DNA from: an uncultured Candidatus Saccharibacteria bacterium
GTDB lineage: Bacteria; Patescibacteriota; Minisyncoccia; Phycocordibacterales; UBA12088
Assembly: GCA_964567265.1 (NCBI GenBank)
Contig: CAZMLK010000002.1
Span: forward strand, 138,813 to 202,812
Reading direction: 5' to 3'
DNA length: 64,000 nt
Made by a program: the position numbers and the translations under genes. The notes under the pieces were generated by a model, which was given only the letters and a program-made list of their open reading frames with translations, did not search any database and was not told the origin of the DNA. Shown in pieces: positions 11,683-55,280 of the stretch. Numbering within the stretch: position 1 is the stretch's first letter; each line of letters starts with the position of its first letter.

Positions 11683-11684
11683 GA

Positions 11685-12539: not shown

Positions 12540-12583
12540 GAAACGGCAGAAGCCCGCGCGTGAGCACGGGCTTCTGCCGTTTC
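12540..12583. terminator. hairpin gaaacggcagaagcccg...cgggcttctgccgtttc after ybjQ
   Basis: 17-bp stem. Confidence 0.5.
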
Positions 12584-12602
12584 AACACATCCAAAATAGA
12601 AA

Positions 12603-12628
12603 GCCCCGGATGCGTGCGCATCCGGGGC
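12603..12628 (-). terminator. hairpin gccccggatgcgtgcgcatccggggc with T-run on the minus strand, downstream of ORF 12646-13326
   Basis: 10-bp GC stem, preceded on the plus strand by aaaataga. Confidence 0.5.
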
Positions 12629-12645
12629 CACTTCACGATCTCGAT

Positions 12646-13326
12646 TCAGCTTCCAGTGCGGACGGTTCTCCCGCCATCGATCACTTGAAGTTGAGTGGAA
12701 CTATTCGGCGCGAGTAGTTGGTTATAGAGACTCTCCAGAGCCGCAATCGCCTTCGGGTAGGTGGGATACTCGCTCCAGCTCTTCCCGTCCCAGATCCACC
12801 ACGTACGTCTTTCCGAAATGGTGCTCGAGTTAAGCGGGAGCACTTGCACCCGGATCAATTCCTGCGCCCTCTGAAGAGGATCGCCGTTGCTGTTTCCGGG
12901 GTCCGGCACCTTGTAGGTGAGGGAGATACGGAACTCTTCACCTTGGAGCCACTGCCTGGTACTGCTCCGGCGGTCGAGTAGTGCGACGGGGATGCCGACG
13001 CACTTCAAGTGGATTGATGTCGAATGGGGGAAGTTGGCCTCCCATCGTTTCTCGACTCCCCTGGAGAAATCGACCAAGGCTTCCTCAAGAAGTACCGCGG
13101 TCCGTTTCGCCGCATATGATCGTTTGAAATACCCGAAGGTGTTTCGGAACATCCGGGCCCACTTGGGGTACGTGGCACTAGCGAGCGACATGCCAGCCAA
13201 TGTCCAGGTGTGCCAAGTAAAGCCACCTGACCAGGTCCACTTGGCGGTAGAGGCGAAGAGAAACCCAAGCAGGATTGAACCCATGATGTAGGCATTCTGC
13301 TCAACCCAGTCACGCAGAGCGTCCAT
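12646..13326 (-). CDS. hypothetical protein with N-terminal TM/signal
   Basis: ILLGFLFASTA hydrophobic start, Trp-rich; no recognisable motif. Confidence 0.5.
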   Translation of the reverse strand: MDALRDWVEQNAYIMGSILLGFLFASTAKWTWSGGFTWHTWTLAGMSLASATYPKWARMFRNTFGYFKRSYAAKRTAVLLEEALVDFSRGVEKRWEANFPHSTSIHLKCVGIPVALLDRRSSTRQWLQGEEFRISLTYKVPDPGNSNGDPLQRAQELIRVQVLPLNSSTISERRTWWIWDGKSWSEYPTYPKAIAALESLYNQLLAPNSSTQLQVIDGGRTVRTGS

Positions 13327-22145: not shown

Positions 22146-22346
22146 CTCACCATACTAAAAAGATTCGCCGCGGGCCCCTTTGGGGCCCGCGGCGTTTCGC
22201 TACGATACAGGTTCTTCCATATCGAACTCTATCTGGCGCACGGGGATACTAGTGCCCGGTATTCGCTCGCAAGCAGCGAAGAAGTCGCGATTATCCGCAT
22301 TTCTCGCGTAGCGAGAAATGCGGATTGCTCTTACAATTGAAATGCA

Positions 22347-23567
22347 ATGGCGATCTTTACGTACAAGGCGACGAACAAGGAAGGGGAAGAGTATGAAGGG
22401 ACCGCGACCGTCGCCGACCGATTCGAGCTCTACTCGCATATCCAGAAGGAAGGCGGCACGATCATTTCCTATGCCGAGGGTAGTGCGGGCGGCGGTTTCA
22501 CGCTCGATGCGCTCATTAGCAAGATTTTCGGCCGCGTGAAGGAAACGGACAAGATCGTTCTTACAAGGAATCTCTCCGCGATGCTTACGGCAGGACTCTC
22601 GCTCACGCGCGCGATGGCCGTGATGAACCGCCAGACCAAGAACAAGAAGCTCAAAACCATCCTTGGGATGGTCGAGGGCTCGATCGAGAAGGGCGGCACC
22701 TTCCATGAGGCGCTGATCCCGTACCCGAACGTATTCAGTCCGCTCATGGTCGCCATGGTGAAGGCGGGCGAGGAAGGCGGCCGCCTCGCGGAATCGCTCT
22801 CGACGATCTCGAACCAGCTCGACCGCTCGTACAACCTCAAGAAGAAGATCCGCGGCGCGCTCATCTATCCCTCGATCGTCATCTTCGCGCTCGTGGTCGT
22901 CGGCATCCTGATGCTCATCTTCATCGTGCCGACCTTGACGAAGACCTTCACCGAGCTCCATGTTGAGCTCCCGGCCAGCACGAAGTTCGTCATCGCGTCG
23001 AGCAATTTCCTCACGCACCATACAGCCACCGCCGTCGCGATCGCCCTCCTCATCGCGGGCGGGGTCTGGATGGCGCTGCGGACCAAGAACGGCCGGCGCA
23101 CGTTCGAGTGGCTCCTTCTCCGCATCCCGATCATCGGCACGCTGGTCCGCGAGACGAATGCCGCCCGCACTGCGCGCACGCTCTCCTCGCTGCTTTCGTC
23201 GGGCGTCGAGATCGTCCGCTCGCTCGAGATCACCGTCGAGGTGGTGCAGAACTCGTACTACAAGGAAGTGATCGTCGAGGCGGGGGAGCGCATCCAGAAA
23301 GGACTCCCGCTCTTCGAGGTGTTCAACAAGTACGAGTCGTTGTACCCGCCCTTGGTCGCGGAACTGATCGCGGTCGGCGAGGAGACTGGAAAGCTCCCGG
23401 ACATGCTGCTCCAGATCGCGGATTTCTACGAGCGCGAAGTCGAGCAGAAGACGAAGGATATGTCGACCATCATCGAGCCGTTCCTCATGATCATCGTGGG
23501 CTCGGTCGTCGGCTTCTTCGCGGTCTCGATGATCACGCCGATCTACTCCATCACGGAGAATATTTAA
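22347..23567 (+). CDS. pilC: type IV pilus inner-membrane platform protein PilC (GspF family)
   Basis: Two T2SSF repeats, three TM segments. Confidence 0.9.
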   Translation: MAIFTYKATNKEGEEYEGTATVADRFELYSHIQKEGGTIISYAEGSAGGGFTLDALISKIFGRVKETDKIVLTRNLSAMLTAGLSLTRAMAVMNRQTKNKKLKTILGMVEGSIEKGGTFHEALIPYPNVFSPLMVAMVKAGEEGGRLAESLSTISNQLDRSYNLKKKIRGALIYPSIVIFALVVVGILMLIFIVPTLTKTFTELHVELPASTKFVIASSNFLTHHTATAVAIALLIAGGVWMALRTKNGRRTFEWLLLRIPIIGTLVRETNAARTARTLSSLLSSGVEIVRSLEITVEVVQNSYYKEVIVEAGERIQKGLPLFEVFNKYESLYPPLVAELIAVGEETGKLPDMLLQIADFYEREVEQKTKDMSTIIEPFLMIIVGSVVGFFAVSMITPIYSITENI

Positions 23568-32274: not shown

Positions 32275-32701
32275 TCCAGTATACCGAGTTTTAGAGAGTG
32301 GAAAAGAAAACCGGCGCGCCACACTGAGGTGGCGCGCCGAGTTCAGGGAGCGACTGCATCCGAGGGTTGGACTTTGAACGCTGCTTGGAGTGCTTCAAAG
32401 AGATGGGCACTTTTCCGCTCTTCGCGGAGGATTCCCATTACGTATTCGATGTACCGCACCGGCACTCGGATTCCTTGGGTCCCATAGAGCGTGAATTGAA
32501 AAAGACGCGTGTCCATCAGCTCGAGGAGAAGATAGACCAGCTGCTTCCGCTCTGCGGGGTCAATGACCAGAAGGTCGACTTCTTGCCCGACGATGACGAC
32601 TTGGTTCTGCACGTTCTGCATGAGTGGTCTCCAGTTGCTGGCTTCATACTAGCGGAAGCGCGCATTTCTGCAAGGATTTATATTTCAGGTACAATACCCC
32701 G

Positions 32702-34399
32702 ATGAGTTACACCGTCCGCGAGGCAGTTCCTGAAAGCGTGAGTACCGAACTCTCCGCGTACGACCCCTTGCTGCAATCCCTCCTCTACGGACGCGGTATC
32801 GAGACGGCAACTGATGCCGCTTTCTTCCTCAATCCCGACTACGAGCTCCATACCCATGATCCGTACCTCTTCCTCGACATGGAGAAAGCGGTTCAGCGTA
32901 TCGTGACTGCAATTAAAAAAGACGAGCGTATCGTCATTTGGAGCGACTATGACACCGACGGCATCCCGGGCGCGGTCATCCTCCATGACTTCTTCAAGAA
33001 GATCGGCTATGACAATTTCGAGAATTACATCCCGCACCGGACGCTCGAAGGCTTCGGGCTCAATATCGCGGGCATCGAGGAACTCAAAGAGCGCGGCGCG
33101 AACGTAATCATCTCGATCGACTGCGGCATCACCGATGTCGCTCCGGTCGCCCGCGCCCGCGTGCTCGGCATCGACGTCATCATCACCGACCACCACCTTC
33201 CGCATGGCGTGATCCCGGATGCCTTCGCGATCGTGAACCCGAAGCAGGAAGCGTGCGCGTATCCGGAGAAGATGCTCTGCGGTGCGGGCGTCGTCTACAA
33301 GCTGGTGCAAGGGCTCGTGAAGAGCGGCGCATTTGATGTGCCCGTCGGCTGGGAAAAATGGCTTCTCGATATGGCTGGCCTCGCGACGCTCTCCGACATG
33401 GTGCCGCTCCGGGGCGAGAACCGCGTCTTCGCACGCTACGGCATGCAGGTGCTTCGGAAGTCACGTCGGCCAGGACTCCAGACCTTGCTTCGGAAACTCA
33501 AGATCGACCAGCGGACCCTCTCAGAAGACGACATCGGATTCATGATCGCGCCGCGCATCAATGCGGCGTCGCGCATGGGCGTGCCGCAGGATGCGTTCCG
33601 CCTGCTCGCGACGAGCGATACAGGCGAAGCAAGTGTCCTCGCCGCGCACCTCGACCAGATCAACAACGAGCGGAAAGGCCATGTTGCTGCGATGGTGAAG
33701 GAAGCGAAGCATCGACTTGAGGAACTCGGCGAGCCGCGTGCGGTCATTGTGCTCGGGAGCATCGATTGGAAGCCTTCCTTGCTTGGGTTGGTCGCGAACA
33801 CGCTCGTCGAAGCCTACGGCCGGCCGGTGTTCCTTTGGGGCCGCGAGACGGGTACCGTCATCAAGGGCTCATGCCGCTCAGATGGTTCGGTGAACTTGGT
33901 CACGCTCATGGACGGCGCACGCGAGATATTCATCGACGCGGGCGGCCATGCGTTCTCCGGCGGATTCTCGATCACCTCGGAAATGCTGCATCTTCTTGAA
34001 GATCGGCTCGTCGAGGCATATCCGAAAGCCCGCGACGCAGACGGCGGGCTCCAGGTACTCCGCGCGGATGCGGAGGTGACGCTCGGCATCGTGAACGAGA
34101 AGACCTGCAAGGTCTTGGATCAGCTTGCGCCGTTTGGGGAAGGGAATCCGAAGCCGATCTTTCTGTTCAAGGGTTCGCGCATTGCGTCCATGCGACAGTT
34201 CGGGAAGGAGGCGAATCATTTGGAATTGATGCTTGAGGACGGCGGCCCCGCGAAAAAGGCGATCGCCTTTTTCGCGGGGCCCGCGAGCTTCGCGAAGCCC
34301 GCCGAAAAAGGAACGGTTGCCGACATCCTCGGCACCATTGAGCGCTCCAGTTTCGGCGGCAAGACCGAGGTCCGGCTCCGACTTCTTGGCATCTTTTGA
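32702..34399 (+). CDS. recJ: single-stranded-DNA-specific exonuclease RecJ
   Basis: DHH motifs (IWSDYDTDGIPG, ITDHHLPHG), DHHA1 domain, C-terminal OB fold; start trimmed to MSYTVREAV. Confidence 0.85.
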   Translation: MSYTVREAVPESVSTELSAYDPLLQSLLYGRGIETATDAAFFLNPDYELHTHDPYLFLDMEKAVQRIVTAIKKDERIVIWSDYDTDGIPGAVILHDFFKKIGYDNFENYIPHRTLEGFGLNIAGIEELKERGANVIISIDCGITDVAPVARARVLGIDVIITDHHLPHGVIPDAFAIVNPKQEACAYPEKMLCGAGVVYKLVQGLVKSGAFDVPVGWEKWLLDMAGLATLSDMVPLRGENRVFARYGMQVLRKSRRPGLQTLLRKLKIDQRTLSEDDIGFMIAPRINAASRMGVPQDAFRLLATSDTGEASVLAAHLDQINNERKGHVAAMVKEAKHRLEELGEPRAVIVLGSIDWKPSLLGLVANTLVEAYGRPVFLWGRETGTVIKGSCRSDGSVNLVTLMDGAREIFIDAGGHAFSGGFSITSEMLHLLEDRLVEAYPKARDADGGLQVLRADAEVTLGIVNEKTCKVLDQLAPFGEGNPKPIFLFKGSRIASMRQFGKEANHLELMLEDGGPAKKAIAFFAGPASFAKPAEKGTVADILGTIERSSFGGKTEVRLRLLGIF

Positions 34400-35419: not shown

Positions 35420-36925
35420 ATGCACACGCCGCCGGGCATACTTGCCCGGCGGCTTTGTATAATGATTCCCATGTTTCTCTATCCACTCATCGGTGGATTC
35501 GCAACAGGCGTCCTCCTCCGGTCCTTCCTCGTGATCGGGCTTCCGGGAGTCGGTTTCGGTGCCGTGATCGCGGCTGCACTCCTCGCGCTCGGTTTCCGCC
35601 GGGGCGAGCGATCGCTCACCCTCGCGGCGATTGTCTGTTTCGGTATCGTGCTCGGCATCTGCCGCTACACGCTTGCAGAGGATGCGCTCCCGTACGCGCT
35701 CGTCGATTCTCTTGGCGAAGGGCGCATGGTCGGGGCGGGCGTCATTGTCGCCGACCCGGATCTCCGCGAAGGGAACACCAAGCTCACCATCGATCTCGAT
35801 ACCATGAACAGCGCGACGACGACGCTCCGCATCCTCGCAACCGTGGATCGTTTCCCTCGCTTTGCATACGGGGATCGTGTGCAGTTGAATGGCATCCTCA
35901 AAAAACCCACAGCATTTTCCGGCGACACGGAGCGCGTCTTCGATTATCCCGCATGGCTCAAGAAAGATGGCATTGTCGCCGTCATGTCATATCCGCGCAT
36001 CGAACGCATCGAGGACGGAGGAGGCAACATCATTTTTCGATACCTGTTCCGCATCAAGCACGCCTTCCTCTCGAATATCGAGGAGCGCATTCCGGAACCG
36101 GAATCGGGACTCCTCGCGGGGCTCTTGGTTGGCTCGAAGCAGTCCTTGGGGAAGGAGCTCCAGGATACGTTCCGCGTCGCGGGTGTCATCCATATCGTCG
36201 TCCTCTCAGGCTACAACGTGACCATTGTCGCGGAAGCCATCATGCGGGCGCTCGCATTCCTGCCGCGCATGCTCTCCTATGCCGCAGGAGGGGTAAGTAT
36301 CATCCTCTTCGCGATCATGGCGGGCGGCTCGGCGACGGTGGTCCGTGCGAGCATCATGGCGGTCCTTGTCCTCATCGCGCGTGCGACGGGACGCACCAAT
36401 GATCTCCTTCGCGCGCTCCTTGTGACCGGCTTCGTGATGCTGATCCACAACCCCTTCATCTTGGCGTTCGATCCCTCGTTCCAACTCTCGTTCCTCGCGA
36501 CCTTCGGCCTCATATTGATCGCCCCGAAGCTTGAGACGCGGGTCACGTGGATTCCGGCAAGATTCGGCATTCGCGAGATTGTCGTCGCGACGCTCTCGAC
36601 GCAGCTCATCGTCTTGCCGCTCCTCCTCTGGATGACCGGTATCTTCTCGGTCGTCGCGCTTCCGGCGAACCTCCTTATCCTCGGCGCGGTGCCGCCCGCG
36701 ATGCTGTTCGGCTTCCTCGCCGGAATGCTCGGGTTCGTGAGTACCTGGCTCGCGCTCCCGTTTGCGCTCATCGCGGATGCGATCCTCCGTTACCAGCTTT
36801 TCGTCGTCCACGTGCTTGCTGGGCTTCCGTTCGCGGCCTTCACGCTCCCTGCCTTTCCGTTCTCAGTATCGCTGGTTGCGTACGTGCTCTTGGCGCTCGT
36901 CTATGTGCGCGTGTCGAAAAAATAA
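35420..36925 (+). CDS. comEC: ComEC/Rec2 DNA-uptake channel protein (N-terminal OB/DUF4131 plus competence membrane domain; no MBL domain in this ORF)
   Basis: AGVIHIVVLSGYNVTIVAEAIM matches the competence-domain signature (HxxxxSGxN), many TM segments; start may be 35420 or 35462. Confidence 0.7.
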   Translation: MHTPPGILARRLCIMIPMFLYPLIGGFATGVLLRSFLVIGLPGVGFGAVIAAALLALGFRRGERSLTLAAIVCFGIVLGICRYTLAEDALPYALVDSLGEGRMVGAGVIVADPDLREGNTKLTIDLDTMNSATTTLRILATVDRFPRFAYGDRVQLNGILKKPTAFSGDTERVFDYPAWLKKDGIVAVMSYPRIERIEDGGGNIIFRYLFRIKHAFLSNIEERIPEPESGLLAGLLVGSKQSLGKELQDTFRVAGVIHIVVLSGYNVTIVAEAIMRALAFLPRMLSYAAGGVSIILFAIMAGGSATVVRASIMAVLVLIARATGRTNDLLRALLVTGFVMLIHNPFILAFDPSFQLSFLATFGLILIAPKLETRVTWIPARFGIREIVVATLSTQLIVLPLLLWMTGIFSVVALPANLLILGAVPPAMLFGFLAGMLGFVSTWLALPFALIADAILRYQLFVVHVLAGLPFAAFTLPAFPFSVSLVAYVLLALVYVRVSKK

Positions 36926-37556: not shown

Positions 37557-37598
37557 GGACGGGTTTGGTTAGCTGGTCTCGAAAAGTATACACCAAAG

Positions 37599-37628
37599 AA
37601 AAAAGCCAGGGTCCGGGTGGACCCTGGC
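37599..37628 (-). repeat. hairpin repeat copy 1 (gccagggtccgggtggaccctggc preceded by A6), reads as an intrinsic terminator on the minus strand
   Basis: 24/24 identity with 37814-37837 except one loop base; flanking similarity extends to ...gggaggc. Confidence 0.6.
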
Positions 37629-37745
37629 AAGTAAGATCAGGGAGGCTAAACGTCTGGGAGGAGATAAGCACGCGGCAATGCGTGTGCCCCAAGTCATGTG
37701 AATGACCAGGTGGGCTTGAAGCCCAGGAACCGCAAGTCCACTGAC
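37600..37745 (-). ncRNA. candidate small RNA (about 140 nt) with its own promoter TTGACA-N17-TACAAA (37749-37777, minus strand) and terminator (copy-1 hairpin)
   Basis: No protein-like ORF; internal hairpins (GACAC...GUGUC; CACGC...GCGUG); bracketed by promoter and terminator; class unknown. Confidence 0.3.
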
Positions 37746-37807
37746 ACCTTTGTACCAGTGTCTTGGAATGCTGTCAATGCCGCGTGAGTGAGGGGTGCGG
37801 GGGAAAT

Positions 37808-37837
37808 GAAAAAGCCAGGGTCCGGAGGGACCCTGGC
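37808..37837 (-). repeat. hairpin repeat copy 2 (gccagggtccggagggaccctggc)
   Basis: See copy 1. Confidence 0.6.
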
Positions 37838-37981
37838 AGTCAGTCGAGGAACTGGGAGGCACGATTACCATAGCAGTCTTCATGATATTTTGTCAATTAA
37901 CCAGGCGTTTTTACAGGTAATCCACATGACAGGCCAAGCGATTCCTAGAGCGGAAACGGGGCCATGGTACCATTTCCAGAT

Positions 37982-42699: not shown

Positions 42700-44853
42700 A
42701 TGGAAGGAAGAGATTATCCGCTCGAGAGAGTACGAAACTTCGGGATCATCGCCCACATCGACGCCGGAAAGACCACCACGTCCGAGCGTATTCTGTATTA
42801 CACCGGCGAATCCCATAAGATCGGCGAGGTGCACGAGGGCGAGACGGTCACCGACTGGATGGAACAGGAGCGCGAGCGCGGCATCACCATCACTGCAGCG
42901 GCCATCACCTGCTTCTGGACCAAGACGGATGAGGATCCAGCAGACAAGGCCAAGAAGCAGCGCTTCAACATCATCGACACCCCGGGACACATCGACTTCA
43001 CCGTCGAGGTGAAGCGCTCACTCCGTGTGCTCGACGGCGCGGTCGTCGTCTTCGACGGCGTTGCCGGCGTCGAACCGCAGTCTGAGACCAACTGGCGCTA
43101 CGCAGACGAGGCAAAGGTGCCGCGTATCTGCTTCATCAACAAGCTCGACCGCACCGGCGCATCATTCGAGCGCTCGTACCAATCCATCCTCGACCGCCTC
43201 AACAAGAAGGCGGTCCGCATGCAGCTCCCGATTGGCGACGAGGATGCCTTCTCAGGCGTCATCGACCTCCTCAAGATGAAGGCATTCACCTTCACCGGCG
43301 AGCTCGGCAAGATCGTCGTCGAAGGCGAGATCCCTGCAAACATGATGGCCGAAGCGGAGAAGTACCGCGCAGAACTCATCGAGCGCATCGTCGAACACGA
43401 TGACGAGCTCATGAGCGGCTACCTCGAAGGGAAGATCCCGACGATGGAAGAACTCAAGAAGACGCTCCGGAAGGCAGTGATCGCGAACGATATCTTCCCG
43501 GTCTACACCGGCTCAGCGCTCAAGAACAAGGGCGTCCAGCTCGTCCTCGACGCGGTCGTCGACTATCTCCCGTCTCCCTTGGACATGCCGCCGGTCACAG
43601 GCATCAACCCGAACAACGGCGAGGCGATCGAGCGCCATGCGGATGATTCCGAGCCGTTCTCAGCGCTCGCCTTCAAGCTCCAGGCAGACCCGTTCGTGGG
43701 CCAGCTCACCTTCTTCCGTGTCTACTCAGGTACGATCGAAGCGGGTTCATATATCTACAATTCAACCACCGGCGACAAGGAGCGCCTCGGCCGCATCGTC
43801 CGCCTCCAGGCGAACGACCGCGAAGAAGTAAAGAAGGTCTACGCCGGCGAGATCGCCGCAGCCGTCGGGCTCAAGAACACCCGTACCTCGCACACGCTCT
43901 GCGACGAGAATGATCCGATCATCCTCGAAGAGATCGTCTTCCCGGAGCCAGTCGTGTCGCTTCGCATCGAACCGAAGACAAAGGCTGACCAGGAGAAAAT
44001 GGGCATCGCGCTCAAGAAGCTTTCCGATGAGGATCCAACCTTCCGCGTCACCTCTGATGCTGAGACCATGGAAACCATCATCGCGGGCATGGGCGAGCTC
44101 CATCTCGAGATCCTCGTCGACCGCATGAAGCGCGAATTCAACGTCGAAGCGAATGTCGGCAAGCCGCAGGTCGCGTACCGCGAGACCATCCAGCGCGAAG
44201 CCGAGGCAGAACACAAGTACATAAAGCAGACCGGCGGTCGCGGCCAGTACGGTCACGTGAAGATCCGCGTGAAGCCGATGGAAGCATGGCCGGAAGACAA
44301 GAAGATGCCAAACAACGTGAAGCGCGAAGATCACTTCGAGTGGATCAACAACATCAAGGGAGGCGTCATTCCGCAGGAATACATCCCGGCTGTCGAGAAG
44401 GGCGTGAAGGAAGCAATGGAGCGCGGTATCGTCGCCGGCTACAAGCTCGAGGATGTCTCATGCGAACTCTACGATGGCTCGTACCACGATGTGGACTCAT
44501 CCGAAATTGCCTTCAAGATCGCAGGATCCCAGGCGTTCCAGGAGGCAGCCAAGAAGGCGGGCGCCGTCATCCTCGAACCGATCATGCGCGTCGAAGTCGT
44601 CATCCCGGAGAAATTCATGGGCGACATCAACGGCAACCTTTCCTCGAAGCGCGGTCAGATCGAAGGCATGGAAGATCGCGGCATGCTCCGCGTCGTGAAG
44701 GCCAAGGTCCCGCTCTCCGAAATGTTCGGATACACGACGGCGCTTCGCTCCATGACGGAGGGTCGCGGTTCCATGACCATGGAATTCGACCACTACGAAG
44801 TGGTTCCGAAGAACGTCTCCGACACCATCGTCGCGGCACGCGGAGGGAAGTAA
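42700..44853 (+). CDS. fusA: elongation factor G
   Basis: [11 protein letters not shown]1, DTPGHIDF G3, full five-domain EF-G, 717 aa. Confidence 0.95.
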
Positions 44854-44870
44854 CTCTGAATCAAACAACA

Positions 44871-44907
44871 CAAAGCCGGCGCGAGCTTTGCTCGCGCCGG
44901 CTTTGTT
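44871..44907 (+). terminator. terminator aaagccggcgcgagctttgctcgcgccggcttt + TGTTTT
   Basis: 13-bp GC stem after the fusA stop. Confidence 0.6.
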
Positions 44908-44971
44908 TTCACCCTCCATACAAAAAACACCCCGGAAATTGGCTGAAAGCCAATTTCCGGGGTGCAAAGAC

Positions 44972-45406
44972 TCAAGCAATAATCCGCTTCCGCACCCTCT
45001 CAAAGTAGAGAAGAGAGGCGAGGAAAGTGGCGATGGTGGGGAGCATTGTTGCACCGATTATAAATCCAATCGGATCCTGTATTGCTTCTGTCCGAGTAGC
45101 CACGTTTACCCAGCTCAGGTGAAGCATTATGGATCCCACCGCAGCCACCAGCAAACTTAAGGCGATCTGCAGGAGAAAGGAGTCGCCCTCAACGACATAG
45201 TCAGCGATGACCAATGACGCGAAGACCAAGATCGTCACAATGAGGACTGTCGAGATAGCCCCTCCGCCGAGCTGCCACCCGGGCCGGTCCAAGACCACGG
45301 CCATGGTTTCTGGGGCACTGTTTCTGAGAAAGAGCACCAGCATCGTCAAGCAGGTGAGTATGCTGGCGATTAACGAGCGCACAAAAGCACCTCTCATTTT
45401 CGGCAT
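44972..45406 (-). CDS. hypothetical 4-TM membrane protein (inserted between fusA and tuf)
   Basis: Four hydrophobic helices; no motif recognised. Confidence 0.45.
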   Translation of the reverse strand: MPKMRGAFVRSLIASILTCLTMLVLFLRNSAPETMAVVLDRPGWQLGGGAISTVLIVTILVFASLVIADYVVEGDSFLLQIALSLLVAAVGSIMLHLSWVNVATRTEAIQDPIGFIIGATMLPTIATFLASLLYFERVRKRIIA

Positions 45407-45506
45407 CCTTCCGTCGGTTCAGTACTCGTGCCAGCATGCCGGCGTCTCCGCGACGAATCAAGCCGTCCTCCGGGAGGGTACCGAAGCCTTCACCCCTGCC
45501 CGTTTA

Positions 45507-45535
45507 TTGACGTACCCCTTGCTTTCCGCTATTAT
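45507..45535 (+). promoter_or_regulatory. tuf promoter TTGACG-N17-TATTAT
   Basis: Near-consensus sigma-70 promoter 175 nt upstream of tuf; purine-rich leader. Confidence 0.45.
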
Positions 45536-45709
45536 CTCGCTACCGCAGTTGTTGCGTCCTTTTTTGTCATTGGACCTTGTCATTTGGAGGGCCTTGGGAG
45601 AAAGGGAGGTAGAAAAGGTGGTAGGTGTTCATTATAAATCGCTACCGTCTCGAATTGAGCCCTGGTTCTCGCGCGCTCATACGGGACAGTAGCCAAACAA
45701 GAAAATCAT

Positions 45710-46909
45710 ATGGCAGGTACATTCGATCGCTCGAAGCCCCATGTCAACGTCGGCACCATCGGCCACGTCGACCACGGCAAGACGACCCTCACAGCCGGCA
45801 TCCTCCACGTGCTCCACATGGCGGGGAATGGCTTTGGCGCATCCGAGAAGGGTGTTGACCAGATTGACAACGCGCCTGAAGAAAAGGCACGTGGTATTAC
45901 GATTTCGCTCTCGCACTCTGAGTACGAGACCCCGAACCGTCACTACGCGCACATCGACGCGCCAGGTCACGCTGACTACATCAAGAACATGATCACGGGC
46001 GCAGCCCAGATGGACGGTGCGATCCTCGTGGTCGCAGCGACCGACGGCATGATGCCCCAGACGCGCGAACACGTCCTCCTTGCAAAGCAGGTTGGCGTGC
46101 CTCGCATGATCGTCTTCATCAACAAGGTGGACATGGTCGAAGACCAGGACCTCGTTGACCTCGTCGAAGAGGAAATCCGCGACCTTCTCACGAAGCAGGG
46201 TTTTGATGGCGCAAACGCACCGATCATTCGCGGTTCAGGCCTCAAGGCCCTCGAATCGAAGTCGGTTGACGATCCGTACGCTCAGAAGATCATCGAACTC
46301 GCAAAGGCACTCGATGAATACATCCCGATGCCGGTTCGCGAGACTGAGAAGCCGTTCCTCATGCCGATCGAAGACATCTTCTCGATCGAAGGACGCGGTA
46401 CCGTCGTTACCGGACGCATCGAGCGCGGCCAGGTGAAGGTGGGCGAGGATGTTGAAATCATTGGCCTCCAGCCAACCGCGAAGACGACCATCACGGGTAT
46501 CGAAATGTTCAACAAGCAGCTTGATAGCGGTATGGCAGGCGACAACGCCGGCATCCTCCTCCGCGGAACCAAGAAGGAAGACGTGCACCGCGGACAGGTC
46601 CTCGCAAAGACGGGATCAGTTACGCCGCACACTGAATTCGAGGCAGAAGCATACATCCTCAAGAAGGAGGAAGGAGGCCGCCACACGCCGTTCTTCACCG
46701 GTTACAAGCCGCAGTTCTATGTCCGCACCACGGACGTGACGGGCGACGTGACCCTCCCAGAAGGTGTTGAAATGGTCATGCCAGGCGACACCACGAAGTT
46801 CAAGGTGAAGCTCGTCGCACCAATCGCGCTCGAAGAGCAGACCCGTTTCGCCATCCGCGAGGGCGGCAAGACGGTCGGTGCAGGCGTCGTCACCAAGGTG
46901 ATCGCCTAA
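45710..46909 (+). CDS. tuf: elongation factor Tu
   Basis: [22 protein letters not shown]; 399 aa. Confidence 0.95.
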
Positions 46910-46958: not shown

Positions 46959-47339
46959 ATGGCAACGAAAGAAACTACAGAAGCTCCGAAGCGCGCCAAG
47001 CGCGCGGCGAAAGCTGTCAAAGGAGTTGAAGCCGTCTCCAAGCTCCGCATTCGCGTGCGCGCCTATGAGCACAAGCTCCTCGACGCATCCGTAAAGCAGA
47101 TCATGGACACCGCGCTTCGCTTCGATGCCACCATCGTCGGTCCGATCCCGCTTCCGACGGAAATCAAGAAGTACACGGTGAACCGCGCCGCATTCGTCTA
47201 CAAAGACGCGCGAGAACAATTTGAAATGCGAGTGCACAAGCGCCTCATCGACATCCTGAATCCGTCCGCGAAAGTCATCGAGTCCCTGACCAACCTCACC
47301 CTCCCATCCGGCGTCAACATCGACGTCAAGATGGTTTAG
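46959..47339 (+). CDS. rpsJ: 30S ribosomal protein S10 (with about 25-aa basic N-terminal extension)
   Basis: KLRIRVRAYEHKLLDASVKQIMDTA...RLIDILNPSAKVIESLTNLTLPSGVNIDVKMV. Confidence 0.9.
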   Translation: MATKETTEAPKRAKRAAKAVKGVEAVSKLRIRVRAYEHKLLDASVKQIMDTALRFDATIVGPIPLPTEIKKYTVNRAAFVYKDAREQFEMRVHKRLIDILNPSAKVIESLTNLTLPSGVNIDVKMV

Positions 47340-47384
47340 GTAAAAGGAGTCAAACAAAAAATCCCCTCACGGGGATTTTTTGTT
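47319..47384 (+). repeat. direct repeat, left copy (last 21 nt of rpsJ + stop + terminator)
   Basis: atcgacgtcaagatggtttaggtaaaaggagtcaaacaaaaaatcccctcacggggattttttgtt. Confidence 0.75.
47352..47384 (+). terminator. rpsJ terminator aaacaaaaaatcccc-tcac-ggggattttttgtt
   Basis: Hairpin 13 nt after the rpsJ stop; this is the part duplicated at 48221-48270. Confidence 0.55.
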
Positions 47385-47426
47385 ACACTATGGAGGATTT
47401 CTTTTACATACTAACCGTTCAATCTC

Positions 47427-48131
47427 ATGTCAGAAGGATTCCACGAGGCGAGTGCAGAAAAATCACCCAAGGAGGCATTTACAGAAAAATTCCTTGATCA
47501 GCCTTACGGGAACCTGACAGAAGAACAGCAGGCGATGCTTCGTACGCATGTTGAGGGGCGGGAGGGTCCATGGACAACGGTGCCGAACATATTCGATGTA
47601 ACTTGGGATGATGAAGCGAAACGGATTGTCATCGAGCTGTCTGAGGGAGGAAGCCAAACGTTTATATACGACCCCTTCGTGCCGAAGGTGCCACAAGCTG
47701 CACCACCTGTAGAATCAAGAGGAGACTCCGAGCCGAGTGGCGCAGTAAAAGTCGGGGAAGAACCCGTCTCAGTTGTGACTCAGAGCAACGAGGCGTTGCG
47801 CACCGTGATCCCTGGCGGGGAATGGATCGATTTGTCTGGGAAAAAGATCGTAACCGATCAGGCTGGCTTGTATTCAGGCAAAGAACTGGTCATGAAAACG
47901 GGTGCCGCGAACACGATGAATTTTGTCGGCAAATATAATTTCCACGAGGGAACGATGATCGTTGGAGGGCCCGATGGCTCACTGCACGCGGCTCCGTACT
48001 CGGCAGAGAGAGAGGAGGCGCTCAAAAGCGCAGGGTACAAGCAAGAGTTCGAGCTGGTGCCGAGTTTAACAGGTCATCAAAGGTTCGAAGACGAGGAGAC
48101 CCAGAGGGTATTTGAAGCGCTAAAAAACTAG
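47427..48131 (+). CDS. hypothetical soluble protein (island gene a)
   Basis: 234 aa, no TM, no recognisable motif; lies between the two direct repeats. Confidence 0.5.
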   Translation: MSEGFHEASAEKSPKEAFTEKFLDQPYGNLTEEQQAMLRTHVEGREGPWTTVPNIFDVTWDDEAKRIVIELSEGGSQTFIYDPFVPKVPQAAPPVESRGDSEPSGAVKVGEEPVSVVTQSNEALRTVIPGGEWIDLSGKKIVTDQAGLYSGKELVMKTGAANTMNFVGKYNFHEGTMIVGGPDGSLHAAPYSAEREEALKSAGYKQEFELVPSLTGHQRFEDEETQRVFEALKN

Positions 48132-48191
48132 CTTCACTCTTCCTAGAAGTCAGGCGCTTCACGTGCGGGTGTTCTGTGTCACGGTACCGGA

Positions 48192-48270
48192 ATCGACGTC
48201 AAGATGGTCTAGGCGAAGGAGTCAAACAAAGAATCCCCCCAAGATAATTTCTCTAGGGGATTTTTTGTTT
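48192..48270 (+). repeat. direct repeat, right copy (degenerate rpsJ 3' end ...GIDVKMV* + terminator-like hairpin with enlarged loop)
   Basis: atcgacgtcaagatggtctaggcgaaggagtcaaacaaagaatcccc[ccaagataatttctcta]ggggattttttgtttttt; about 85% identity to the left copy outside the loop insertion. Confidence 0.75.
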
Positions 48271-48401
48271 TTTAAGAAAATAGAGATTCCGCAGAAAGGG
48301 AGGATCGGATCAAATAGAGACATTGACAAATCTATTATATGTGGTATATAATACCGCCAGATAAAGTCCTTCAATCATCGCGCTTCGGACGGAGAAAACC
48401 C

Positions 48402-48866
48402 ATGCGCCTTTCCTTGATTCTGGCCTTCGTACTCGGTCTCCAGAGCGGTTTTGTCGGCAATTCTGCTCACGCAGAGATTGCGACACCCGCCGATCTGCCC
48501 GCAGACTATGCTACCTGGCAAACGTTGCATGAACTCTCTTGTGAACCGCTGTCGATCAAAGTGTATTCGACAATCACGCCGGATGCCGAGATGGAGCTTC
48601 TGACCTACACCCTCGGCAAGAATCTGGTCGCGTACTCGATGTCATCATCCACAAATGCTGGCAAGGTAATCACCGACCATGGCCTCTACAAAGGGGAATG
48701 GAAATCGGTCGATGGCACCGATGCCAATAAGGAGAAATCGGAGCGTCTCGTGAATGCCGCCCTTCTCGATAACGGTGGACAGCCTGCTCTCGTTGCGTTC
48801 GGCCAGTGTAAGCAGGAGCTTGTGCGTAAAATCATAAAGGCTTTCTTTGCACCACTTGGCAGGTAA
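48402..48866 (+). CDS. hypothetical secreted protein (island gene b)
   Basis: Signal peptide MRLSLILAFVLGLQSGFVGNSAHA; start trimmed from ORF-track 48339. Confidence 0.45.
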   Translation: MRLSLILAFVLGLQSGFVGNSAHAEIATPADLPADYATWQTLHELSCEPLSIKVYSTITPDAEMELLTYTLGKNLVAYSMSSSTNAGKVITDHGLYKGEWKSVDGTDANKEKSERLVNAALLDNGGQPALVAFGQCKQELVRKIIKAFFAPLGR

Positions 48867-48912
48867 AACGGAGCCCATTGCATCAGTGTGTGTTCCTCGC
48901 CGTTGATACCCG

Positions 48913-48950
48913 CCCCCAGTCCACGCATGGACTGGGGGCTTCATTTTTTT
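48913..48950 (+). terminator. terminator cccccagtcca-cgc-atggactggggg + TTCATTTTTTT
   Basis: 11-bp stem followed by T7. Confidence 0.55.
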
Positions 48951-49155
48951 GCCTCATGGGGATTTTTTGATTTTTGTTGAAAATAGAAAAAGCCGAAATG
49001 CGCTGTTTCGGCTTTCTTCCTCGTGCATGAGGGTCACGGGTTCGGTGGTTAGTATAGTCTGCCACGAACAGGCATTGGTACAGCTTCTCATTGGACGTAG
49101 CGTTGCTAAAGCAAAAGAAAATCGCTGCGGGCCCGATGGTCCGCAGCGACATCCG

Positions 49156-49803
49156 TCATGCGCTCTGAGGGAATGAGGGCGTCAGAGTGGTGCGACGTCC
49201 CCAGAGATACATACAGAGGAGGATAAGTCCCGAAACGACGAGCAGGATCCCGCCAATTGCAGGGATGAGCCATGCTTGGCGCGTTCCGTCCGAATAGAAA
49301 TCGAACGTGAGATTTTCTCGGTCAACGCGCACTTTCCCCACGTAGGTGAAAAAAGTGTAGTCAGGAAGTGGCACTGCCGCGCTGATGTAGGTCGATAGGC
49401 CGTTCTCCAGCCTGACCAATGCGGTATATTCGACCACCCCATGGAGACCTTTGCCGTCCATGCTCCCGTCGTCCCGCCACCCATTCTGGATTACCACGAA
49501 TGTTGGAACGCTATTCCCCGTTCGTTGCTGAAAATCCTGCATTGGCAATTCTGCCGAAGGCGTACCGTTCTCGAAGGAAAGCACGCTGAGGGTCGTTGAA
49601 TTGTTCGGCTTCCACAACTCGACGTGTATCGGATCAGGCATAGGACTTGCAGTCCATCCAATCAGCATCCATGCACCGAGGGCAAAAATGCCCAGAGGCC
49701 ATCGATAGGTTTTCCACGCACATTTCAGTATCTTTCGAAACGGCTTTCTCTTCGAATTACCAGTCATCTTCCATGCTCCATGGATAGAGTGAACCCACGC
49801 CAC
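49156..49803 (-). CDS. hypothetical membrane protein (island gene c; TM at each end, extracytoplasmic middle)
   Basis: LGIFALGAWMLIGW and AIGGILLVVSGLILLCMYLW helices; hairpin aagccgaaatgcgctgtttcggctt downstream. Confidence 0.45.
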   Translation of the reverse strand: MAWVHSIHGAWKMTGNSKRKPFRKILKCAWKTYRWPLGIFALGAWMLIGWTASPMPDPIHVELWKPNNSTTLSVLSFENGTPSAELPMQDFQQRTGNSVPTFVVIQNGWRDDGSMDGKGLHGVVEYTALVRLENGLSTYISAAVPLPDYTFFTYVGKVRVDRENLTFDFYSDGTRQAWLIPAIGGILLVVSGLILLCMYLWGRRTTLTPSFPQSA

Positions 49804-49915
49804 CGTACCATCCGATCTTCAAAATGTAAATAAATATCTTCGCCCTCTGTGCGTAGACCGAGGGCTCCGTCGTTCCATGGTTCCTGAAAGCCGTTTGGTG
49901 CTATGCTACGGAGTC

Positions 49916-50377
49916 ATGAAGCAGAAGCTGAAAGCGCTATTCAAGTTCGCCTCCCCGGCCATCCTGCTGGTATTCCGGACGTACTACTTCATCTTCCGCC
50001 CGAAGGGGGAGAGCGTGAAGTGCGTGATCCGGAACGGTGGCAACATCCTCCTCATCCGCAATTCGTACGGCGCGAAGTTCTGGACGCTTCCCGGTGGCGG
50101 CGTGAAGTCGAGCGAGACCCTGGAACAGGCGGCCGTCCGCGAAGCACATGAGGAAGTCGGCATCGAGATCCGCGAGCAGGACCTCACCAAGCACGGCAAG
50201 GTGCGCTACCTCCTCGACTTCCGCCGCTCCACGGTCTGGGTGTTCAGCGTCACGGTGCCGTCTCCCGCATTCCACCTTCATGGCGTCGAGATCGAGGAAG
50301 CGAAGTGGTTTCCCGAGAACGCAATCCCCGGCATGCGCTCGCATCTCCTGGAACGTTTCCTCGATTTGGCGAAATAA
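49916..50377 (+). CDS. Nudix hydrolase (island gene d)
   Basis: Nudix box GGGVKSSETLEQAAVREAHEEVGI (Gx5Ex7REUxEExGU); start trimmed to MKQKLK. Confidence 0.75.
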   Translation: MKQKLKALFKFASPAILLVFRTYYFIFRPKGESVKCVIRNGGNILLIRNSYGAKFWTLPGGGVKSSETLEQAAVREAHEEVGIEIREQDLTKHGKVRYLLDFRRSTVWVFSVTVPSPAFHLHGVEIEEAKWFPENAIPGMRSHLLERFLDLAK

Positions 50378-50433
50378 CCGACCGATTTTAGAGTCGGTAT
50401 TGACTATGAAATTAAATTCGTCATGCTGGCACA

Positions 50434-51069
50434 ATGACTAGGTCCACAGAGGAATCACTTGAAATCATCTCAAACCAATTTGTCGTGAAGCGTCGGTTTA
50501 CCACGGGTACATTCAACCTTATATTGGGTGCGGTACTAGGCGCCACTTTGACTTTTTTAGTAGGAGCTATTAATTCTTACATCTCCAACCAAACCTTACG
50601 TCAAGCGGTTGCAAAGAGCATCTACATTGAAATTGAGCATAATAAAATTTTTTTAAATAGCTCTGTATCTGATTTAAACAGCGCAGTTTTAGATTGGAAA
50701 GGCAACAAAGGAAATAAATTAAATATGCAAGTATTCGCCCTGCATAGAGAAGACTTCTACCAAATTTATCTCCAAGATTTAACTCTATTAGATAAAAACA
50801 CTCTAGATGAAACCTACGAATTTTACGGAAGACTTAGGACCATTGATTACCTAACAAAATTAATCACTGATGATTTTGATCTCTATTACAGAAATGAAAA
50901 TCTAATTTCTAGAGCTGATATCTTGTCCCGACTAATGGAATTACAGCAGGATGTGGATGAGGCGCTTCGGAATGCTGACAAAATCCAAAGAGATTTAATT
51001 ACTAAATATGATGTTAACAGTGTTCAGAGTTCCTGTAATCCAACCAATTGTCTAACAAACTCTTGGTAA
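50434..51069 (+). CDS. hypothetical protein with N-terminal TM, very low GC (about 38%) (island gene e)
   Basis: Asn/Ile/Leu/Tyr-rich, AT-rich codons, in strong contrast to the about 60% GC host. Confidence 0.5.
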   Translation: MTRSTEESLEIISNQFVVKRRFTTGTFNLILGAVLGATLTFLVGAINSYISNQTLRQAVAKSIYIEIEHNKIFLNSSVSDLNSAVLDWKGNKGNKLNMQVFALHREDFYQIYLQDLTLLDKNTLDETYEFYGRLRTIDYLTKLITDDFDLYYRNENLISRADILSRLMELQQDVDEALRNADKIQRDLITKYDVNSVQSSCNPTNCLTNSW

Positions 51070-51075
51070 AGAGAG

Positions 51076-51104
51076 TTGCATCCTTTCAGACCTTCCTGTA
51101 TAGT
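51076..51104 (+). promoter_or_regulatory. candidate rplC-operon promoter TTGCAT-N17-TATAGT
   Basis: 145-nt leader follows with nested hairpins (gtccatt...aatggac enclosing gtccc-aata-gggac). Confidence 0.4.
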
Positions 51105-51249
51105 CCATTTACTCTCGTTCTGAGAGATTCTATGTCCCAATAGGGACCAATGGACTGAAATCCGCAAGGGATTCGTCCTTGGCGGTATTTTTAATACCAA
51201 AAACGATCAAAAGACGGTAGAAATCTTCAAAAAACCTATAAAACTCAAC

Positions 51250-52994: not shown

Positions 52995-53841
52995 ACATAT
53001 GAAGACCTACAAGCCAACAACACCGTCGCGCCGCCACATCTCGAATCCGAACTACAAGGAGCTTTTGTCTGCGACGACTCCGCACAAGGCGCTCACGAAG
53101 GGACGGAAGCGGAACATGGGCCGCAACAAGGACGGACGCATCACCACCCGCCACAAGGGAGGAGGCAGCAAGCGCCGTTTCCGCGATGTGGATTTCCTCT
53201 ACTCCAAGAAGGACATCGTCGCGAAGATCGAGAGCATCGAATACGATCCGAACCGTACTGGCTTCATCGCGCTCGCGCTCTATGCTGACGGAACCCGCTC
53301 GTACGTCCTCGCACCGAAGTCTCTCAAGGCCGGCTCAACCTTCCTCGTTTCAGAGAAGGCCAAGATCCAGCCGGGGAACCGCCTCCCGCTCGCGAATATC
53401 CCGGTTGGTACCTTTGTGTACAACCTCGAGATCAAGCCGGGAAATGGCTCGAAGATGGTCCGCTCAGCAGGAAACTACGCTGAGGTCATTGCGCAGGACG
53501 GCATTTATGCCCTCGTGAAGATGCCATCGACCGAAGTTCGCAAGTTCCTCGGAAGCGCATGGGCATCGGTTGGTGAGGTCTCAAACGATGAGCACCACCT
53601 CGCGAATGTCGGAAAGGCAGGACGCTCACGCAACAAGGGTATCCGCCCAACGGTTCGCGGTACTGCCATGAACCCAGTCGACCACCCACACGGAGGCGGC
53701 GAAGGAAAGTCTGGACGCGGTCACCGCCGCGCACGCTCTCTCTGGGGCAAGCCGACCGGCAAGGGTCACAAGACTCGCACGCCGAAGAAGTACTCGAACC
53801 ACCTCGTCGTTTCTCGCCGCAAGGTTGGAAAGAAGAAATAA
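52987..53841 (+). CDS. rplB: 50S ribosomal protein L2
   Basis: NPVDHPHGGGEGKSGRG signature; 8-nt overlap with rplW. Confidence 0.95.
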   Translation: MYKHMKTYKPTTPSRRHISNPNYKELLSATTPHKALTKGRKRNMGRNKDGRITTRHKGGGSKRRFRDVDFLYSKKDIVAKIESIEYDPNRTGFIALALYADGTRSYVLAPKSLKAGSTFLVSEKAKIQPGNRLPLANIPVGTFVYNLEIKPGNGSKMVRSAGNYAEVIAQDGIYALVKMPSTEVRKFLGSAWASVGEVSNDEHHLANVGKAGRSRNKGIRPTVRGTAMNPVDHPHGGGEGKSGRGHRRARSLWGKPTGKGHKTRTPKKYSNHLVVSRRKVGKKK

Positions 53842-53859
53842 GATCAAGACACGGGAAGA

Positions 53860-53899
53860 AACAAAAGGGCCGCGCGAACGCGCGGCCCTTTTGTTTTTG
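53860..53899 (+). terminator. terminator aaacaaaagggccgcgcgaacgcgcggcccttttgttttt after rplB
   Basis: 13-bp GC stem plus TTTTGTTTTT. Confidence 0.65.
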
Positions 53900-53911
53900 A
53901 TTGGAAATGAT

Positions 53912-53957
53912 CATAAAAAGATGAAGCCGCCGGCGTGCGTACGTGCGCCGGCGGCTC
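53912..53957 (-). terminator. hairpin aagccgccggcg-tgcgtacgtg-cgccggcggctctt with T-run on the minus strand
   Basis: Downstream of minus-strand ORF 53981-54289. Confidence 0.45.
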
Positions 53958-53980
53958 TTCAATTACACCCGGAAGGGGAG

Positions 53981-54289
53981 CTATCTTTTGCCGTTCTCGG
54001 CCGATAGCAGAAACGCCGTCTTGTCGTTGCGGACGGGACGCGCAGTCATCCTGTTGCCTGTAAGGGCTGCTAGGAGACGCGCAATCTGCTGGAGCTGGCC
54101 TTCGTCGGCGATCGTCACATCAGAACGCATTCCATCCACCAAAAGGTAGATTTGATTATTGCCCCTCATGATGAGCAGGGTGCCGCCGGGAGCCGAGACA
54201 ACGTCCCCCTCTTGGGGTGCTGTGGATCCGAGCTCACCATTGCATCTCAGTTCACATGCCACAATTAGTACCTTCCTGCAGTTTTCCAA
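53981..54289 (-). CDS. hypothetical 102-aa protein (inserted between rplB and rpsS)
   Basis: ORF with its own terminator; LLIMRGNNQIYLLVDG; possibly a small alpha/beta regulatory (roadblock-like) fold, uncertain. Confidence 0.45.
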   Translation of the reverse strand: MENCRKVLIVACELRCNGELGSTAPQEGDVVSAPGGTLLIMRGNNQIYLLVDGMRSDVTIADEGQLQQIARLLAALTGNRMTARPVRNDKTAFLLSAENGKR

Positions 54290-54861
54290 GTGACATTAAG
54301 AAGCAATCTGACGATTTGTCAAATTTCTTCTTTAGGGAAGCCCTAAAAAGATACGCCCCCGAGCTGCTCTGCAGCTCGGGGTACGTGTGTTCAGTAGGGG
54401 AGGGTCATTTCTCCCTGACGCGGCATCTGTGGTTCAAGAGGGACGGAGGACTTGAGCTCCTTCAGCTTGCAAACAAGCCTGAACGCCCTACCTATTTCCT
54501 GCGCCATGCGGTACTTCTGCTTGCCCTTCAGCAATATCGGCGTTTCCAAATAGAAGCTTGCTTCTGCCCTGGACCAGAAACAACGTCGTACCCGTTTCCG
54601 GCCAAGTATCCTGATGGCAACCGCAATTGCCACGGCTTCGAAGTAAGGACGCTCGACAACATAAAGCCCTTTGCACCGGATGAGGAGAAACTCGCAATTG
54701 GTCGTGGCATCTCGGCACCCAAAGTCGCGAACGCTCACGCGCTTGGGGGAAAACGCCTTGGTCATCCACTTTCCTCCAGAAAAGGCGGTAAAGAACAGCC
54801 GATATTAAAAACTCTATACGCCAATCTGTCAAGGGTAAGGAAAGAGGAAAGCGCCTTTTGT

Positions 54862-54890
54862 TTGACAGAAACCCCCGTTTTGCGTACTAT
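54862..54890 (+). promoter_or_regulatory. rpsS-operon promoter TTGACA-N17-TACTAT
   Basis: Consensus -35, 17-nt spacer, near-consensus -10, 40 nt upstream of rpsS. Confidence 0.5.
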
Positions 54891-54929
54891 GCTTCCCAAG
54901 CTCTCTCGCGAGCTATTTTCTTTACAGAA

Positions 54930-55280
54930 ATGACACGATCACTCAAAAAAGGCCCATACGTCGACGAAAAGCTCCTCAAGAAGATCGAGGGGAAGAAGGC
55001 TGGCACCACCGGCCCGATTAAGACGTGGGCACGCCGCTCGCAGATCGCCCCAGAGATGGTCGGCTTCACGTTTGGCGTTCACAATGGCAAAGACCATGTC
55101 CCGGTCCTTGTGAGCGAAGAAATGGTCGGCCATCGCCTTGGAGAGTTCTCTCCGACAACCAAGTTCGTCCGCCACGGCGGTAAGATGCAGAAGGAGCTTG
55201 AATCCAAGCGCAAGGAGGCAGAAGTCGCAGCAGCAAAGGCCGCAAAGGCTCCCGCAGCCGCGCCTGCTAAGAAGAAATAA
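54930..55280 (+). CDS. rpsS: 30S ribosomal protein S19 with Ala/Lys-rich C-terminal tail
   Basis: [20 protein letters not shown]...[10 protein letters not shown]; tail [17 protein letters not shown]; start trimmed to ATG 54930. Confidence 0.9.

Follow-up and report, generated by a model that had tools for sequence, protein, structure and literature searches.

Hotspots of gene gain by horizontal gene transfer (HGT) between core genes are a general concept in bacterial genomics, and the str/S10 cluster of ribosomal-protein genes, together with its rpsJ-rplC junction, is contiguous in most bacteria. Integrative elements can insert into the 3' end of a gene while carrying a replacement 3' end, as is the case for tRNA and transfer-messenger RNA (tmRNA) islands and for prophages e14 and 21 in icd. 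Another route was proposed for the arrays of orphan or displaced modules in type VI secretion system (T6SS) effector-immunity, rearrangement hotspot (Rhs) and contact-dependent inhibition (CDI) loci, which are attributed to sequential displacement and homology-facilitated illegitimate recombination (PMC5361080). In the Patescibacteria, or candidate phyla radiation (CPR), genomes are tiny, recognisable mobile elements are few, and gene gain is poorly documented. This text concerns a 64-kb stretch of such DNA (contig CAZMLK010000002.1, positions 138,813 to 202,812; hereafter the window, at its full length), in which the 3' end of rpsJ, the gene of ribosomal protein S10, and the hairpin behind it occur in three copies around two small genes. 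We consider it probable, with limited confidence, that all three copies go back to one native sequence, of which they represent successive versions, left by serial displacement through recombination anchored in the tuf-rpsJ region.

The str/S10 cluster of the window runs from fusA (42700-44853) and tuf (45710-46909) through rpsJ (46959..47339, plus strand; Pfam Ribosomal_S10, E 2.8e-31), which is the anchor gene, to rplC, rplD, rplW and rplB, and the interval between rpsJ and rplC is a 3.9-kb island of non-ribosomal genes. The island begins with two modules. Module a (47385..48191, plus strand) consists of gene a (47427-48131, a 234-aa orphan) and 60 nt of unmatched 3' flank, and module b (48285..48957, plus strand) comprises a promoter, gene b (48402-48866) and a terminator of its own. 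Copy 1 of the repeat (47319..47384, plus strand) precedes module a and contains the last 21 nt of rpsJ with the stop codon and, after a spacer of 12 nt, a perfect hairpin, AAACAAAAAATCCCC-TCAC-GGGGATTTTTTGTT, whose stem lies at 47353-47366 and 47371-47384 and whose loop is TCAC. Copy 2 (48192..48284, plus strand), between the modules, starts with an rpsJ relic (48192-48212), which is 21 nt of rpsJ coding sequence reading in frame as IDVKMV*, and continues with a spacer, a hairpin (arms at 48224-48238 and 48256-48270, 17-nt loop) and an A-rich post-terminator spacer ending in GAAAATAGA. Copy 3 (48958..48987, plus strand), behind module b, has the right hairpin arm GGGGATTTTTTG and the native spacer up to GAAAATAGA, the left arm being missing. 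An earlier reading made from the letters alone (the sequence-only reading) had already reported that the rpsJ 3' end and terminator are repeated around the first island gene, with a decayed in-frame rpsJ end in the second copy and a third partial copy further on; all three copies were found where it had placed them. The arrangement is not an assembly artefact, because independent Logan assemblies from several Sequence Read Archive (SRA) runs show the same one.

Copies 1 and 2 (47319-47384 and 48192-48270) have in common the 22-mer ATCGACGTCAAGATGGT(T/C)TAGG at the rpsJ end, of which copy 2 has the version ATCGACGTCAAGATGGTnTAGG, one mismatch from copy 1. With up to three mismatches allowed, this 22-mer occurred at two sites only in the 64 kb, and none of 100 shuffled sequences gave a match. 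The two copies also have a 35-mer in common at 83% identity, and a gapped alignment has 60 of 79 columns identical, the chief difference being the loop, which is 13 nt larger in copy 2. Copies 2 and 3 have both GGGGATTTTTTG and GAAAATAGA in common and are identical at 22 of 29 positions without gaps. When the 12-mer arm GGGGATTTTTTG was searched at up to one mismatch, five sites were found in the window, all within the three copies, against 0.17 expected. Upstream of 48192 there is no resemblance to rpsJ, the local alignment score being at chance, and the left edge of the copy 2 relic is therefore sharp. A leftward extension of copy 3 (CCTCA) is weak (p 0.1) and only a hint. Counted from the end of rpsJ, the repeat belonging to module a extends from -20 to +45 and that belonging to module b from +32 to +61, their overlap being only the 12-14-nt right arm; the left cuts of the relics differ as well, lying at -21 in copy 2 and inside the hairpin in copy 3.

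Copies 1 and 2 fold as perfect A-tract/GC/U-tract hairpins, with energies of -21 and -25.9 kcal/mol and z about -4. Folding also indicates that copy 3, with no left arm, cannot form the hairpin, and this copy is inert. Among alleles and species the hairpin folds at -21 to -35 kcal/mol (z -3.9 to -9), and compensatory changes are present in 4 of its 15 pairs, a conservation of structure that fits an intrinsic terminator under selection. The rpsJ-end hairpin, a stable and conserved stem-loop with a U tract, is accordingly consistent with a rho-independent terminator, and termination is predicted. The hairpin of copy 2 is intact and would most likely terminate gene a; module a itself yielded neither a promoter nor a terminator.

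Both island genes at the rpsJ side are orphans. For gene a, a word-indexed search returned no close homologue outside the species, and exhaustive HMMER searches returned distant relatives that cover only the C-terminal ~110 aa, a domain of unknown function. The protein had no match in Pfam, PADLOC or NCBIfam; its AlphaFold model is mediocre (predicted local distance difference test, pLDDT, 65), and Foldseek against the PDB gave nothing below E 0.3. Gene b encodes 154 aa with a signal-peptide-like N-terminus, and no match to it was found outside the species by word-indexed search, nor in Pfam, NCBIfam or PADLOC. The promoter and terminator scan placed a perfect sigma-70-type promoter, TTGACA-18-TATAAT (48323-48352), in front of it and a terminator at 48912-48939 behind it.

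By S10, the relatives of the window are Paceibacteria/Parcubacteria of the CPR, the best species representatives having 78-88% S10 identity. A contig of the same species was absent from the GTDB representative genomes and the JGI metagenomes, where the top S10 identity was 78-82%. The same-species sample amounts to about 10 contigs, nine of which are Logan contigs from different SRA runs with an identical S10 protein. Three of them (L002, L005 and L007) have the arrangement of the window, and L003 has genes a and b but other genes further downstream. L001 is without window 48240-48964, that is, without gene b, and its copies 2 and 3 are merged into one: behind gene a there is the rpsJ relic, then one hairpin, TCCGCC-AGCAAT-GGCGGA, and then the spacer and the DNA that follows copy 3 in the window. 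L008 is without gene a and without all the other island DNA of the window, from its single rpsJ end to the rplC leader; it has a GCGGA-type hairpin as in L001, a different gene of 130 aa, and the conserved rplC leader. Gene a thus occurs in the window, L001 and L003 and is absent from L008 and from the sister species described below. The tuf-rpsJ identity between L008 and the strains with gene a (97-98%) falls inside the range of the latter among themselves (97-99%), and gene a is therefore polymorphic within one species.

The comparison of strains also bears on how the copies came to be neighbours. The identity between copies 1 and 2 of one strain is 76-83%, whereas different strains are 95-99% identical in orthologous DNA; the copies are more diverged than the strains and so were different alleles when they were joined, not identical at birth. 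The single copy of L008 is closest to copy 2 of L001 (69 of 75 positions). The hairpin in front of gene a is of the TCAC-loop type in every case, but behind the gene L001 has the GCGGA hairpin and the window the long-loop one, which means that the module's upstream hairpin travels with it and the downstream hairpin does not. One suggestion of the sequence-only reading, a series of modules that each end in the same hairpin, is not supported in that form on this point, and also because copy 3 has no hairpin.

The state before the two modules is preserved in four sister-species contigs (L173, L174, L178 and L179), with S10 87-88% identical. Their order is rpsJ, one hairpin (AAAACAAAAATCCGGC..GCCGGATTTTTGTTTT), an A-rich spacer, a membrane-protein gene, a NUDIX gene, a variable slot and rplC, with neither a nor b and no duplication. 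In the window, the counterpart of the membrane-protein gene is at 49156..49767 on the minus strand (the open reading frame, ORF, is open to 49803; the probable start is M13), and it is 51-58% identical over its full length to the gene directly behind rpsJ in the sister species. The terminator of this convergent gene was located by the terminator scan at 48987..49017 on the minus strand. The NUDIX hydrolase gene follows at 49877..50377 on the plus strand (Pfam NUDIX, E 5.9e-19), at the same position as in the sister species. Copy 3 is contiguous with native downstream DNA that is common to L001, and it is orthologous to the sister-species spacer. This arrangement implies that GAAAATAGA belongs to the native spacer behind the terminator, that copy 3 and the fused copy of L001 are the native region downstream of rpsJ, still beside the membrane-protein gene, and that copies 2 and 3 descend from that region, a and b being later additions on the rpsJ side.

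These results suggest the following course of events. The ancestor would have had the rpsJ 3' end, the intrinsic-terminator hairpin and the A-rich spacer, and then the convergent membrane-protein gene and NUDIX. Two single-gene modules would have been gained beside rpsJ, first b and then a, each with incoming DNA from a related strain that brought an intact rpsJ end, a hairpin and a new gene. On the left side, the exchange would have been homologous recombination in the conserved tuf-rpsJ region; on the right side, an illegitimate join, or one over very short homology, may have occurred inside the resident rpsJ end or terminator, at -21 for a and within the hairpin for b. The left-truncated resident copy would thereby be displaced downstream as a scar. 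This route is akin to homology-facilitated illegitimate recombination and probably followed natural transformation. Once formed, the relic behind gene a provides rpsJ-end homology on both sides of the gene, so that a could enter naive strains by ordinary recombination; L001 could be explained in this way, by movement of module a into a strain without b with the relic as the right-hand homology arm.

Two properties of displacement arrays are seen here: an anchor, the tuf-rpsJ region being 97-99% identical among strains with an identical S10 protein, and left-truncated relics in front of the older modules, with the ancestral membrane-protein gene and NUDIX farthest out. Furthermore, the window encodes ComEC (35420-36925, with Competence and DUF4131 domains), RecJ (32624-34399), and a PilB-like ATPase (T2SSE) and a PilC-like protein (T2SSF) at 20394-23567, which plausibly form a set for DNA uptake and processing. 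Natural competence has been demonstrated in Patescibacteria (PMC10633639).

Several points weigh against displacement through recombination. The right-hand illegitimate joins have to be supposed and were not seen, because no donor state (rpsJ-a or rpsJ-b without a relic) is present among the ~10 contigs. The junction of a is identical in strains with and without b, which calls for a second recombination over ~40-50 nt of homology, and a site-specific recombinase would be the simpler cause. The copy 2 hairpin of the b-bearing strains matches neither L001 nor L008, so that extra hairpin alleles must be assumed. The similarity of the right flank of copy 2 to the native flank of L008 is weak (p about 0.02) and no more than a hint. 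Finally, the strain sample is only about 10 contigs, the genome was read over the window, and an integrase could be encoded elsewhere in it.

Information of another kind comes from other Paceibacteria. Of 116 loci of other species with both genes, 49 have rpsJ and rplC less than 150 bp apart, and in 43 (about a third) the two are separated by 600 bp or more. The cargo of this junction is heterogeneous and includes glycosyltransferases, Pirin, DUF559, a diversity-generating retroelement (DGR), one DDE transposase and EF-Ts; no recombinase family is among the cargo families listed (25 of 51). When loci with at least 300 bp behind rpsJ were scanned at a cut-off of 30 bits, seven of the 88 from other species had their own rpsJ end or post-stop region copied again downstream in direct orientation, and the reversed-sequence control gave 0. 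The relics in those lineages are 16-71 nt long and 75-100% identical. L080 has a 16-nt relic behind a small membrane-protein gene, L097 a 71-nt relic (75% identity) behind a 231-aa gene and a PemK/MazF-like toxin gene, and L148 a one-gene module flanked by a 25-nt hairpin, while L018, L129 and L158 have tandem copies with no cargo. No recombinase was found in the four intervening proteins scanned (L097 and L148). With so wide a spread of relic length and identity and no recombinase in those proteins, illegitimate joins are a better fit than the action of a dedicated enzyme. One public metagenome-assembled genome (MAG; L049, 2494-2592) has a perfect 55-nt duplicate of the rpsJ end, which was rejected as a scaffolding artefact, since it spans a run of N.

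Some further observations were made on these loci. In L018 (5486-5760) and L129 (697-1120), CACTCAYTCGGA and a long hairpin of variable sequence are repeated two to three times directly behind rpsJ, and no gene lies between the repeats. The NUDIX gene of L003 has its last 36 nt (3814-3849) repeated at 4160-4195 with 97% identity, following an inserted gene for a 58-aa two-helix membrane protein, so that the rpsJ-type pattern is present at a second gene. The 58-aa protein and the small protein behind rpsJ in L080 (4836-5024), an unrelated Paceibacteria contig, have 41% identity over 49 aa.

A possible, though unlikely, alternative is site-specific integration, in which small elements whose attP imitates the 3' end of rpsJ and its terminator would be inserted by an integrase encoded elsewhere or since lost; copy 1 would then be attL and copy 2 attR, and a second event would give copies 2 and 3. 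The topology is exactly that of attL, insert and attR, with direct repeats that contain the rpsJ 3' end and a restored target gene. Empty and occupied sites coexist, the a junction is identical in two backgrounds, and GGGGATTTTTTG is present in all three copies; in addition, an element-side hairpin at copy 1 and a native hairpin at copy 2 of L001 agree with a crossover on the hairpin's left side. However, recombinase scans, which covered the island genes of all strains and the ORFs of the window from ~1-45 kb, found no recombinase or transposase domain in the island genes of the window, L001, L003, L008 or the sister species, nor among the scanned ORFs, and the intervening proteins scanned in other scarred lineages gave none either. 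Each module is just 0.7-0.9 kb and has a single orphan gene, the stretches covered by the two repeats differ, and the relics of other lineages vary from 16 to 71 nt. No trace of such elements was found in viral contigs (IMG/VR, searched with two DNA patterns and both proteins) or in phages and plasmids (searched with the whole island). The sequence-only reading had likened the repeats to att-site duplication from serial integrations. The serial insertions, each leaving a repeat, are borne out by L001 without b, L008 without a and the sister species; the att label, as given there, is not, in view of the lack of an integrase in the island variants and the scanned ~1-45 kb, the differing extents of the repeats and the fact that the copies were unlike when formed.

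It is improbable that the rpsJ end and terminator are a true attachment site of a Paceibacteria cassette-capture system without a cassette-encoded recombinase, served either by a host enzyme acting on the terminator hairpin or by cassettes that carry their own rpsJ-end homology arms and spread by transformation. If so, it would be an integron-like platform for gene capture within the ribosomal-protein cluster. Slightly less probable again is a local duplication, in which slippage or unequal crossing-over produced a tandem duplication of the region downstream of rpsJ, and foreign DNA landed between the copies afterwards. The cargo-free tandem copies behind rpsJ in L018, L129 and L158 speak for such a process, but the divergence between the copies of one strain far exceeds that between strains, and two separate insertions exactly between copies would be required.

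Target-site duplication is very improbable, whether a transposase or a staggered break in the palindromic terminator was its cause. Direct repeats do stand on both sides of each insert, and some insertion sequence (IS) families target palindromes. However, the repeats are 66 and 29 nt long and hence unequal, neither terminal inverted repeats nor a transposase are present, and copies that were not identical at birth largely exclude it. An integron-like cassette array, of the type known as clusters of attC sites lacking integron-integrases (CALIN), with the hairpins as attC sites, has hardly any probability. Its single-gene units separated by imperfect palindromes are matched here, and GTCAAAC and GTTACAC each agree at six of seven positions with the R''/R' consensus; yet no IntI was found in the island or the scanned ORFs, copy 3 has no left arm, the hairpin downstream of gene a does not travel with a (L001 against the window), the stems are perfect without extrahelical bases, and gene b has its own perfect promoter and terminator. 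Equally implausible is a dispersed terminator family like repetitive extragenic palindromic (REP) elements with three occurrences here by happenstance, which the sequence-only reading had named as the finding that would undo its interpretation: the hairpin does resemble a generic bidirectional terminator, but copy 2 includes 21 nt of rpsJ coding sequence, and the motif was confined to this locus in all the sequence scanned for it, namely the 64-kb window and about 180 fetched loci, with no occurrence elsewhere in the other same-species contigs.

The rest of the island and its surroundings can be described briefly. The variable slot behind NUDIX (50380..51096, plus strand) holds in the window a 211-aa orphan gene (50434-51069) with 33-38% GC in the composition profile; the same slot is occupied by an HATPase_c+DUF4325 gene in L001 (3796-4812) and by other genes in L003, and in the sister species L178 (9710-10759) by the Shedu gene SduA (E 3.5e-100), a known defence gene. 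The right border of the island is the conserved upstream region of rplC (51097..51249, plus strand), where all strains including L008 rejoin, followed by rplC itself (ribosomal protein L3; 51250..51861, plus strand; Pfam Ribosomal_L3). In this border region rplC probably has a promoter and leader of its own, which would make it the start of a transcription unit that is not coupled to rpsJ. Small hairpins lie within it at 51112-51126 and 51165-51181; no Rfam family matched the leader, and among known RNA families nothing came near any gathering score.

Other junctions of the cluster also hold additional genes. Between fusA and tuf (44853-45710), a minus-strand ORF for a 144-aa membrane protein (44972-45406) lies behind strong hairpins at 44870-44906 and 44927-44965, and between rplB and rpsS (53841-54930) there are two minus-strand ORFs, the sister species carrying inserts there too. 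Duplicated gene ends were looked for at both junctions and none was found. Elsewhere in the window, an intergenic, 35-nt GC-rich hairpin with an A-rich lead (GCCAGGGTCCGG..GGACCCTGGC) occurs at 37595-37629 and, 209 nt away, at 37804-37838 with 89% identity, and this pair may be another duplicated terminator. A 74-nt repeat of 82% identity (11196-11269 and 11447-11520) is located within four tandem minus-strand ORFs of similar size (10844-13326), which are probably paralogous genes.

The locus can be read as a stepwise record, with the ancestral state, one insertion and two insertions, each scarred, beside an essential and highly expressed gene. The rpsJ-rplC junction in relatives of this species holds variable cargo that includes a defence gene, and we found no description in the literature of an rpsJ-rplC hotspot in CPR. 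Should the proposed recombination route prove correct, short displaced gene ends could serve generally as markers by which events of this kind are detected and dated in metagenomes.

Comparison with known systems places the locus as follows. Like integron arrays and CALINs, it has serial single-gene units, palindromic separators and a strain-variable array, but it has no IntI, attI or attC signature, one module has its own promoter and terminator, and the hairpin belongs to the upstream side of the module, the opposite of an integron cassette. The likeness to HGT hotspots consists in a strain-variable, low-GC region between two core genes, with one slot that holds the defence gene Shedu in a sister species; the difference is its position inside the str/S10 ribosomal-protein cluster. 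As with integrative elements that target gene 3' ends, the insert is bordered by non-identical direct repeats of the target's 3' end, and the target gene remains whole, whereas here no integrase was found, the inserts are shorter than 1 kb with one gene, and the repeat extents are unequal. The T6SS, Rhs and CDI arrays differ in their anchor, which is the constant part of a toxin gene there and an essential ribosomal-protein gene with its terminator here, and in their cargo, toxin tips and immunity genes there and unrelated orphan genes here; the relics here are also short, with 21 nt of coding sequence and the terminator. In both cases, on the displacement reading, a conserved upstream gene is the homology anchor beside which new modules join, older modules are moved downstream, each behind a 5'-truncated relic of the 3' part of the anchor, and no dedicated recombinase is involved, later spread occurring by ordinary homologous recombination (PMC5361080). 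We therefore regard the feature as probable recombination scars in a strain-variable island inside a CPR ribosomal-protein cluster, and as a further case of an evolutionary pattern that is already known; it does not represent a novel type of element.

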